Below are positions 8,280 through 9,040 of a stretch of 27,285 nucleotides of DNA, one piece after another (positions within the stretch are counted from its first letter, which is position 1; each line of letters starts with the position of its first letter). The notes below the pieces were generated by a model. The model made no database searches and was not told the origin of the DNA. It saw only the letters and a list, made by a program, of their open reading frames with translations. The stretch comes from a virus (taxonomy: Duplodnaviria > Heunggongvirae > Uroviricota > Caudoviricetes): the IMG/VR virus record IMGVR_UViG_2724679238_000012, positions 1 to 27,285 of that record. The stretch is one strand, 5' to 3'. Position numbers and translations under genes: made by a program.

Positions 8280-8786
8280 TTGAGTATTTTCAATAAACAC
8301 GCACACCAGGAACGTCCGTACATCGTCATAGTAGATATTGATGGGACGATATCAGAGGCAACGGAAGACAGGCTGCATTTACTTCCACCACCTGGCAAAG
8401 GTGCATTAACAGAGCACTGGAACGAGTTTAACCTTGCCTGTGACACTGATGCTCCCATCACTCCAGTTATTGATATGGTGCGCCAGTTGTCCGGCATTTA
8501 CACCCTCTGGTTTGTAACCGGGCGCTGTGAGATAGCCAGGGATAAAACACGAGCTTGGTTGCGTAAGCACGTAACAAATGGGGCGGAGCCTTTGCTATCT
8601 ATGCGTCCTGCCACCGATGACAGAAATGACGGTCCAGCAAAGATTGATCTCCTGAAGAAAATTGGTCTAAGTAAAATTGCGTTCGCGCTGGAAGATAAGA
8701 TTGAAGTGGCGCGTGTTTTCAGGAGTCACGGCGTACTTACGTTAATGGTCAGGGAGTATGAAAACGCGCTTCTCCATCAACAATAA
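8280..8786 (+). CDS. HAD-superfamily phosphatase-like protein (motif I DIDGT)
   Basis: 168-aa ORF with TTG start 5 nt after GAGGAGG; IVIVDIDGTIS matches HAD motif I (hhhhDxDGT). Confidence 0.6.
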   Translation: MSIFNKHAHQERPYIVIVDIDGTISEATEDRLHLLPPPGKGALTEHWNEFNLACDTDAPITPVIDMVRQLSGIYTLWFVTGRCEIARDKTRAWLRKHVTNGAEPLLSMRPATDDRNDGPAKIDLLKKIGLSKIAFALEDKIEVARVFRSHGVLTLMVREYENALLHQQ

Positions 8787-8802
8787 TTGCTCTAATAAAT
8801 CT
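8786..8802 (+). promoter_or_regulatory. C1 operator (ATTGCTCTAATAAATCT, 16/17)
   Basis: Starts at the last base of the stop codon of the HAD-like gene; followed by TTGATT. Confidence 0.7.
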
Positions 8803-8884
8803 TGATTTTTAAAACAGAGAAAGTGAAAATAAAAACATGCCGTAAGGCGCGGCATGTATCCAATCAATCACAGGAGCTGAAAAT

Positions 8885-8971
8885 ATGAACACGGCATTCA
8901 AAATCATTATGGCCGCGATCTATTTCTGGCTGTTCTCTATCACTTTTGGCGGCATCGTCGCGCATGGGTAA
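8885..8971 (+). CDS. 28-aa hydrophobic peptide (MNTAFKIIMAAIYFWLFSITFGGIVAHG), candidate small membrane protein
   Basis: ATG 8 nt after AGGAG; single predicted transmembrane-like segment; downstream of a C1 operator and a short hairpin; below the ORF-track size cut-off. Confidence 0.35.
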   Translation: MNTAFKIIMAAIYFWLFSITFGGIVAHG

Positions 8972-9006
8972 GGGGAGTATATTAGCCATTTGGAACCCCA
9001 CGAGCT

Positions 9007-9040
9007 CTTGCGGGTTTAATTAAGAACCCGCAAGAAAAAC
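9007..9040 (-). terminator. Terminator hairpin downstream of hsdR (cttgcgggtt / aacccgcaag, loop taattaag)
   Basis: 10-bp perfect stem; on the minus strand it is followed by a U-run (plus-strand aaaaa), 11 nt after the hsdR stop. Confidence 0.6.

Follow-up and report, generated by a model that had tools for sequence, protein, structure and literature searches.

A small gene, most likely for a single-pass membrane peptide, at the head of the C1-repressed pmgT unit of P1-like phage-plasmids

The element considered here, a 28-codon gene immediately behind a C1-controlled promoter in a 27,285-nucleotide stretch of viral DNA (IMG/VR record IMGVR_UViG_2724679238_000012, positions 1 to 27,285; the whole of this stretch is hereafter termed the window), invites comparison with two groups of small membrane proteins and with bacteriophage P1 itself. 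The first group comprises TisB and DinQ of E. coli, both of which are repressor-controlled and are paired with the RNAs IstR-1 and AgrB, respectively. Like the window gene they specify a hydrophobic single-helix peptide of about 28 amino acids (aa) from a repressor-shut promoter that is opened by stress or induction, but there is no sequence similarity between them, no RNA antitoxin is detectable at the window locus, and the window gene has an open ribosome-binding site (RBS) and stands first in an operon. The second group consists of SidA from Caulobacter and the AcrZ, MgtS and YohP class from E. coli, with which the window peptide shares its size, a single transmembrane helix and the conservation mainly of hydrophobic character; SidA offers the further parallels of being repressor-controlled and of acting on a membrane machine. 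Here too there is no homology, and the family to which the window peptide belongs is restricted to P1-like phages.

The closest match in terms of DNA is P1 (NC_005856 / AF234172), in which the operator OpmgT, formerly Op88, and the promoters P1pmgT/P2pmgT occur in identical sequence directly after pap, with the C1 operator lying over the −35 hexamer. The P1 reference annotation differs in having no coding sequence between promoter and pmgT and in making no mention of a 5′ hairpin or of the motif CCAATCAATCA, and the pmgT–humD genes of P1 are exchanged in the window for an hsd cassette.

When positions 8700–9100 were used as a megablast query, P1, P7 and other Punavirus genomes were recovered at 96–99% identity along with 874 plasmids, mostly IncY-type P1-like phage-plasmids of E. 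coli; by these sequence matches the window is a P1-like phage-plasmid, its position 8700 corresponding to 84207 of P1 NC_005856. The segment under study is probably the regulatory head plus the first cistron of a C1-repressed early unit, PpmgT, the cistron specifying an inner-membrane peptide of early lytic growth, and comprises the following elements:

8786–8802, plus strand: C1 operator ATTGCTCTAATAAATCT, with one mismatch against ATTGCTCTAATAAATTT; equivalent to P1 OpmgT (former Op88)
8802–8830, plus strand: sigma-70 promoter P1pmgT, with −35 TTGATT at 8802–8807, a spacer of 17 nucleotides (nt) and −10 GAAAAT at 8825–8830; a predicted promoter in the P1 annotation
8836–8856, plus strand: stem-loop where the transcript is predicted to start, CATGCCG (8836–8842) facing CGGCATG (8850–8856), a G+C-rich core of 7 base pairs (bp), with 9 bp possible over 8834–8858
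8860–8870, plus strand: C/A-rich motif CCAATCAATCA, between hairpin and Shine–Dalgarno sequence
8872–8876, plus strand: Shine–Dalgarno sequence AGGAG, 8 nt 5′ of the ATG
8885–8971, plus strand: 28-codon gene, ATG at 8885 and TAA at 8969–8971, product MNTAFKIIMAAIYFWLFSITFGGIVAHG, with a single predicted transmembrane helix; a tail-less allele of a 46–53-aa family

A preliminary description of this DNA, made from the sequence alone, had proposed a 28-codon hydrophobic open reading frame (ORF) at this site. Because 54 ORFs of at least 20 aa occur in 3 kb, the conjunction of such a frame with a Shine–Dalgarno sequence is not significant in itself; the frame at 8885–8971 was nevertheless found to be conserved as a coding sequence in seven lineages. 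Of the 873 plasmids matched in a tblastn search with the peptide, 871 had an intact copy; the copies in P1 and P7 were 100% identical to it, and the search also returned a 58%-identical match at the syntenic site after pmgS in a diverged Salmonella phage-plasmid. The lineage set (n = 7) was drawn from tblastn with this Salmonella homologue, two protein searches deploying 46- and 53-aa relatives of the 28-aa peptide as queries, contig look-ups, a profile search and an IMG/VR pattern scan, and spans E. coli, Salmonella, Cronobacter and metagenomes:

Lineage A: P1 and the window, 28 aa
Lineage B: a Salmonella phage-plasmid, 46 aa
Lineage C: Cronobacter phage JK004, 53 aa
Lineages D and E: two types, metagenomic or from isolates, each of 53 aa
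Lineage F: 48 aa
Lineage G: 53 aa

In each of these lineages the operator, −35 hexamer, 17-nt spacer, −10 hexamer, hairpin, motif, GGAG and ORF were collinear on the 3′ side of pmgS and pap. The reading frame was open in 7/7 despite nucleotide identities of 51–64% between the major types, and over codons 2–24 the mean pairwise divergence was 0.48, 0.15 and 0.53 at first, second and third positions, respectively, the conservation of second positions being a signature of selection for hydrophobic residues. Synonymous divergence (dS) was saturated for many pairs, with non-synonymous values (dN) of 0.3–0.75, and the mean BLOSUM62 score per site was 2.89 in the frame of the ORF as against 1.04 and 0.70 in the other frames, frame 2 containing nine stops in five sequences. 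Residues 7–25 of the window peptide have a mean Kyte–Doolittle value of 2.10, and a 19-residue stretch with a mean of 1.8–2.4 is present in every member of the family. Since the frame is open everywhere, second positions are conserved and synonymous sites are saturated, the ORF most likely represents a true gene, its product being a single-pass membrane peptide. The 74 IMG/VR copies of the P1 type exhibited five synonymous and seven non-synonymous variable sites, the synonymous change A26A being present in 36/74 and the non-synonymous changes each being rare.

The gene has been deposited elsewhere as a 'hypothetical/membrane protein' and is annotated in SJ46, while being absent from the P1 reference record. 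As literature searches on the peptide sequence and on 'Op88' found nothing, it appears to be unstudied. Neither the 28-aa peptide nor its longer homologues gave a match above noise in Pfam, NCBIfam, PHROGs or PADLOC, the best match being phrog_27041 (unknown function) with an E value of 0.004–0.16, and a profile search of 1.84 billion representatives yielded 11 proteins, all of them P1-like.

Two other models of the product were considered and rejected. A 44-aa form extended at the N-terminus (used by PGAP, as WP_001426503.1, and by the phi456 record) has TAA as its codon 3 in the window, at 8843–8845, and the extension is without a Shine–Dalgarno sequence. The in-frame stop codon arises from a C/T polymorphism in the hairpin loop, which reads CCGCAAGG in P1 and CCGTAAGG in the window plus 10 IMG/VR copies, and abolishes the 44-aa model. 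Signal-peptide cleavage, for which candidate sites occur in two lineages (between AKA and TP, and between VKA and AP), was set aside on the grounds that the hydrophobic core extends over 18–19 residues, that the site is absent from the JK004-type lineages, and that cleavage would be meaningless in the 28-aa allele.

The regulatory half of the segment proved to consist of elements recorded previously in P1. The 17-bp asymmetric operator, which overlaps both the pap stop codon and the −35 hexamer, is identical to the protein_bind feature annotated at NC_005856 84293–84309, and the operator plus promoter match NC_005856 84293–84337 base for base. Nine operator-like sites are present in the window, as against 0.2 expected. 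The C1 operator and the TTGATT promoter put forward in the preliminary description accordingly correspond to OpmgT/Op88 and to the −35 of the annotated P1pmgT, complete with its 17-nt spacer and GAAAAT, and the window has its own C1 gene, 99% identical to P1 c1.100. Operator and promoter are thus real and already known P1 elements; Citron, Velleman and Schuster reportedly demonstrated the binding of C1 to Op88 by experiment in 1989. In 7/7 lineages the operator is retained as ATTG(C/T)TCTAATAAAT(C/A)T overlapping a −35 of TTGATT or TTGTTT, and is followed at a constant 17-nt spacing, through spacers of diverged sequence, by a −10-like hexamer (GAAAAT, AAGAAT, AATAAT or CAGAAT). The promoter geometry would place the start of transcription at about 8836–8838, and it follows from the operator/promoter architecture that the peptide would be expressed only upon derepression.

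Published RNA sequencing (RNA-seq) of P1vir at 10 min recorded pmgT at 9.72 and pmgU at 9.84, among the highest P1 values, with pap below both at 8.45 and late genes at about 3–5 (PMC8201110 Table S1). These values fit an active early promoter between pap and pmgT, with the small ORF in its leader.

The 7-bp hairpin, the CCAATCAATCA motif and the good RBS of the preliminary description were all present, and each has its counterpart in every lineage. The hairpin folds throughout, from stems of quite different sequence: CATGCCG in A, AGGCCAC in B and F, GGCCGC in C, AGCCGC in G, GGCAGTCAC in D and GGCGGTCGC in E. All are perfect, G+C-rich and 6–11 bp in length, and start 5–7 nt past the −10 hexamer. 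Covariation is apparent both from the occurrence of unrelated stem sequences at one position and from three double compensatory changes (A-U to G-C between B and C, G-C to A-U between C and G, and A-U to G-C between D and E), G-U wobbles also being present. On the 3′ side of the stem, all seven lineages have a short linker, CCAATCA(ATCA), 1–2 nt, GGAG, 5–8 nt and the ATG, a non-coding layout that is conserved far better than its sequence. The motif, of which the window contains three exact copies against about 0.05 expected, together with the Shine–Dalgarno sequence and AUG, forms a segment with no base pairing in the centroid structure of any lineage.

As its first base invariably falls close to the expected start of transcription, the stem would constitute a 5′-terminal stem-loop of the mRNA. 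Stem-loops in that position, of the ompA type, stabilise E. coli mRNAs, and unstructured C/A-rich stretches upstream of the Shine–Dalgarno sequence are known translation enhancers. By analogy, the hairpin may stabilise the message and the C/A stretch may enhance its translation: the locus resembles those systems in having a hairpin a few nt from the predicted 5′ end, a G-poor C/A stretch, a Shine–Dalgarno sequence and compensatory changes. It differs from them in that further copies of the 11-mer are present in the genome, a recurrence that an ordinary enhancer role leaves unexplained, and in that the transcription start is here only a predicted one.

With regard to that recurrence, CCAATCAATC(A) is strongly over-represented in P1-like genomes. 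Exact copies are located in the window at 8860–8870, 25136–25146 and 26835–26845, with a copy containing one mismatch at 6965–6975, and the 89-kb plasmid pDETEC74 (L114+L115) has five copies plus a single-unit variant where 0.19 would be expected. Three of the copies follow a hairpin and precede a Shine–Dalgarno sequence, namely those at the small ORF, at cra and in the c8–ref intergenic region (where there is only a 3-codon ORF); one lies within codons 7–10 of pmgS, its nucleotide sequence being retained across diverged lineages, and two further copies are in unrelated contexts. The recurrent motif may serve to enhance translation or may be a site recognised by an RNA or a protein; complementarity to it was looked for in the C4 and isrK RNAs of the window, and none was found.

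Read on the opposite strand, the same hairpin gives a further feature:

8826–8857, minus strand: the hairpin (8857–8835) followed by TTTTTATTTTC, the sole terminator-like site called in the scan

The T run of this site is the A-rich −10 region, of which it is probably a by-product, and is absent in the six other lineages; termination on the minus strand was consequently rejected as the conserved role of the hairpin, the T run being confined to the P1 lineage. In the window, transcripts of the convergent hsdR gene may nevertheless end there, this being the only canonical terminator-like site past hsdR. Such transcripts would cross the small ORF in antisense and end inside the C1-controlled promoter, a layout that could lead to mutual interference on induction.

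Downstream of the small ORF, the P1-like sequence gives way abruptly to the hsd cassette:

8975/8976: cargo junction; P1 homology stops right after TAAGGGG, 4 nt past the ORF stop, megablast coverage ends at query position 276, and side-by-side comparison with the P1 sequence agrees
9005–9035, both strands: hairpin with an 11–12-bp G+C-rich stem, a 3′-flank element of the hsd cassette
9051–12212, minus strand: hsdR, from a type I restriction-modification cassette oriented convergently to the small ORF
12274–13509, minus strand: hsdS, from the ORF list
13506–15068, minus strand: hsdM, from the ORF list, followed by phd-doc

Past the junction lies pmgT in P1 and the hsdR 3′ flank in the window; among 74 IMG/VR relatives the junction was mostly to pmgT and in about 12 cases to hsd. 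In P1 the ORF occupies 84392–84478, with pmgT 10 nt further on, and its TAA is situated inside the pmgT Shine–Dalgarno sequence (TAAGGGGGATGCATG). Overall, the window has hsdR/S/M at 8976–15150 in place of P1 pmgT-pmgU-pmgV-upfMNO-hot-lxr-humD, and a near-identical plasmid is annotated as HsdR/S/M and then phd-doc. The pmgT..humD segment is one of eight hypervariable regions of P1-like phage-plasmids (PMC9603915).

A terminator that the preliminary description had placed after the ORF did not withstand inspection. The hairpin at 9005–9035, though stable, has no U tract on either strand, being followed by AAAAACACG on the plus and by GAGCTCGTGG on the minus strand, and was not called in the terminator scan. 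It belongs to the cassette rather than to the P1 unit, because P1 homology ends at 8975/8976, and it accompanies hsdR in IncF plasmids that have no P1 backbone.

The P1 GenBank record notes the same P1 stretch downstream of the EcoDXXI and R124/3 hsd loci, and type IC hsd loci (EcoR124, EcoDXXI) have the same hsdR 3′ flank joined to P1 sequence ending at P1 84482, equivalent to window 8975. The two situations differ in that the window junction sits in what is presumably the original P1-like backbone, whereas the IncF copies are cut by IS1 at codon 3 of the ORF, a pattern suggesting that a P1-like backbone was the source from which these hsd loci spread.

The remaining neighbours of interest are as follows:

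6945–8207: pmgS, 5′ of the small ORF
8280–8786: pap, 5′ of the small ORF
23381–24232, minus strand: c1 repressor gene (NF041318 phage_rep_C1, 611 bits)

Between pacB and c1, the window also has a 1.7-kb module (21658–23348) that is absent from P1 at that site. It contains a C1-operator-like site (21658–21674), Rfam isrK (21749–21827), a C4 antisense RNA (21873–21960), an Icd-like ORF and a 371-aa Ant-like ORF (22233–23348), and is an immunity/antirepressor module of the immI type in a non-canonical location.

The relationship between the 28-aa allele and its longer relatives bears directly on function. Lineages B–G have a hydrophilic tail of 20–29 residues with a common (I/S)Y..D motif, probably periplasmic, that is absent from the P1/window allele. 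A P1-type variant of 37 aa (P0008) has the P1 helix followed by YQNEDAPKK, resembling the IYQNDAP of lineage F, and because it thereby joins a P1-type helix to a lineage-F-like tail, the 28-aa form is, by this comparison, a helix-only truncation of a longer ancestral protein. The P1, P7 and window allele would be tail-less because hypervariable cargo begins immediately after the stop codon. The stop codon overlaps the next start codon (as ATGA or TGATG) in lineages C–G, which implies translational coupling, and in B and P1 the two are 6–10 nt apart. In two IMG/VR contigs (L041, L088; P0016/P0017), foreign DNA enters at codon 20 of the small ORF (…FSINKK…), so the cargo hot-spot sometimes cuts into the small gene itself.

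Taken together, these observations can be accommodated in the following scheme. In the lysogen, C1, with Lxc, would sit on OpmgT/Op88 and occlude the −35 hexamer. Upon infection or induction the promoter would fire and the unit would be transcribed early and strongly, as the RNA-seq values support for the unit, from a start at or within 1–2 nt of the stable stem-loop. The stem-loop may then shield the mRNA from 5′-end-dependent decay in the manner of ompA, while the unstructured CCAATCAATCA stretch and the good Shine–Dalgarno sequence would drive translation of the peptide. The 28-residue product is predicted to insert into the inner membrane as a single helix, Lys6 pointing to an N-in topology, and may act early in the lytic phase, either on a target in the inner membrane or on the integrity of the membrane, the component affected being conceivably of host or phage origin. 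Its closest functional analogues would be the repressor-gated SidA or TisB, though no RNA antitoxin would be involved. Any gene located downstream would have its translation coupled to that of the peptide. In the window, where the cargo is a convergent hsd cassette, the peptide would be the sole product of the unit; transcription past its stop codon would be untranslated and antisense into hsdR, and would probably be stopped by Rho.

Several points weigh against this scheme. No direct evidence was found for translation, membrane insertion or a phenotype, and the transcription start is derived from promoter geometry. The restriction of relatives to P1-like proteins in the profile search means that no function is transferable by homology, and there is little divergence within the P1 lineage on which to base a firm test of selection (N:S 7:5). 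The P1-type allele is without the conserved tail of the other lineages and could therefore be a functionless remnant, and the two contigs with codon-20 insertions point the same way. Finally, pmgT, pmgU and pmgV were non-essential in a CRISPR interference (CRISPRi) screen (PMC10695390), and since the lineage of the window dispenses with all three, the unit must be regarded as accessory.

The main rival explanation develops the remnant argument: a truncated ancestral helix would merely persist between promoter and cargo junction, any translation serving at most to cover the leader and to couple the next gene. Loss of the (I/S)Y..D tail from the P1 and window alleles is what such a remnant would look like, as are a junction only 4 nt beyond the stop codon, a P1 stop codon embedded in the pmgT Shine–Dalgarno sequence, an IS1-decapitated copy that hitch-hikes with hsdR on IncF plasmids, and the interruption of some P1-type copies at codon 20. 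The 28-aa allele is, however, intact and identical in 64 of 83 IMG/VR contigs, with 384 of 873 plasmids at 99% or more, and the common P1-type variants are synonymous and the non-synonymous ones rare. Moreover, the ORF remains intact in the hsd-junction lineage, which has no downstream gene to couple, although as such lineages are young the argument is a weak one. On balance the remnant explanation is considered rather unlikely, and the early-lytic membrane peptide is preferred.

A more ambitious proposal combines three parts: an antitoxin-less, repressor-gated membrane effector; antisense damping of hsdR; and a hairpin–CCAATCAATCA–Shine–Dalgarno module. Were the first part true, loss of C1 would lead to immediate synthesis of the peptide from a stabilised mRNA furnished with an enhancer, and the membrane would be depolarised or a host membrane machine blocked as a host-takeover or abortive step. 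Under the second, the same promoter in the hsd-carrying lineage would read antisense into hsdR and damp restriction during lytic growth. Under the third, the hairpin–CCAATCAATCA–Shine–Dalgarno unit, which recurs at cra and on the far side of c8, would be devoted to the control of translation in P1 and would have a trans-acting partner of its own. That all three hold jointly is regarded as distinctly improbable.

The suggestion, made in the preliminary description, that the peptide is a type I toxin fared less well still. It would then be a membrane-depolarising toxin restrained by an overlapping antisense RNA in addition to C1. In size and hydrophobicity it does resemble TisB, DinQ, ShoB and Ibs, its 28 aa lying within the under-60-aa size class of such toxins; the repressor control of TisB and DinQ has its parallel here; and in the P1 lineage the minus-strand hairpin and T run could terminate an antisense transcript over the ORF. 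That T run is, however, missing from the six other lineages, and consensus promoter scans of the minus strand called no promoter in the window, P1 or the Salmonella lineage B and only two weak ones, within shuffle expectation, in JK004, leaving no conserved antisense promoter. The Shine–Dalgarno sequence and start codon are unstructured, as opposed to sequestered in the hok, tisB and ldr mRNAs. Searches of Pfam, NCBIfam and PADLOC gave no match to a toxin family (Hok, Ldr, TisB, Ibs, ShoB, DinQ, Fst and others) even at E values of up to 1–10. Rfam gave no match at the locus: at gathering level it called only C4 and isrK in the whole window, both elsewhere, and at E values of up to 10 across 8700–9150 it returned chance matches only, among them a minus-strand match to GcvB of 13.8 bits, where the gathering score is 42. 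Furthermore, the gene would be the translationally coupled first cistron of an operon, not a stand-alone module. Classification as a type I toxin–antitoxin system is thus unsupported by the sequence comparisons, and is judged very improbable; nor do any of these results favour a toxin-like action of the peptide by itself.

Least probable of all is an untranslated RNA leader with an incidental open frame. In its favour, no other non-coding features are as strictly conserved as the hairpin and motif, and at one site, 26835–26845 in the c8–ref interval, the motif is present with no usable ORF. Against it, the frame is open across all seven diverged lineages, while frame 2 has nine stops in five sequences; only frame 1 shows the conservation of second positions and the BLOSUM excess; and a GGAG is conserved 5–8 nt ahead of the ATG.

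The preferred interpretation, an early-lytic inner-membrane peptide, is in these terms an ordinary case, one more small membrane protein encoded in an early accessory operon of a phage, with no sign of a novel type of system. What is new is a real, conserved, phage-restricted gene for a small membrane protein; what was already known is the operator, the promoter and the deposition of the ORF elsewhere. Although P1 serves as a reference phage and as a workhorse of the laboratory, this gene is missing from its reference annotation; it stands first in one of the early units with the strongest transcription and defines precisely the left edge of a cargo hot-spot at which P1-like phage-plasmids exchange pmgT-type genes, restriction systems and other accessory genes. 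For those engaged in engineering, the segment offers a compact C1-switchable expression head comprising operator/promoter, 5′ stem-loop, C/A motif and Shine–Dalgarno sequence, and for P1 specialists it provides a defined candidate small membrane protein.

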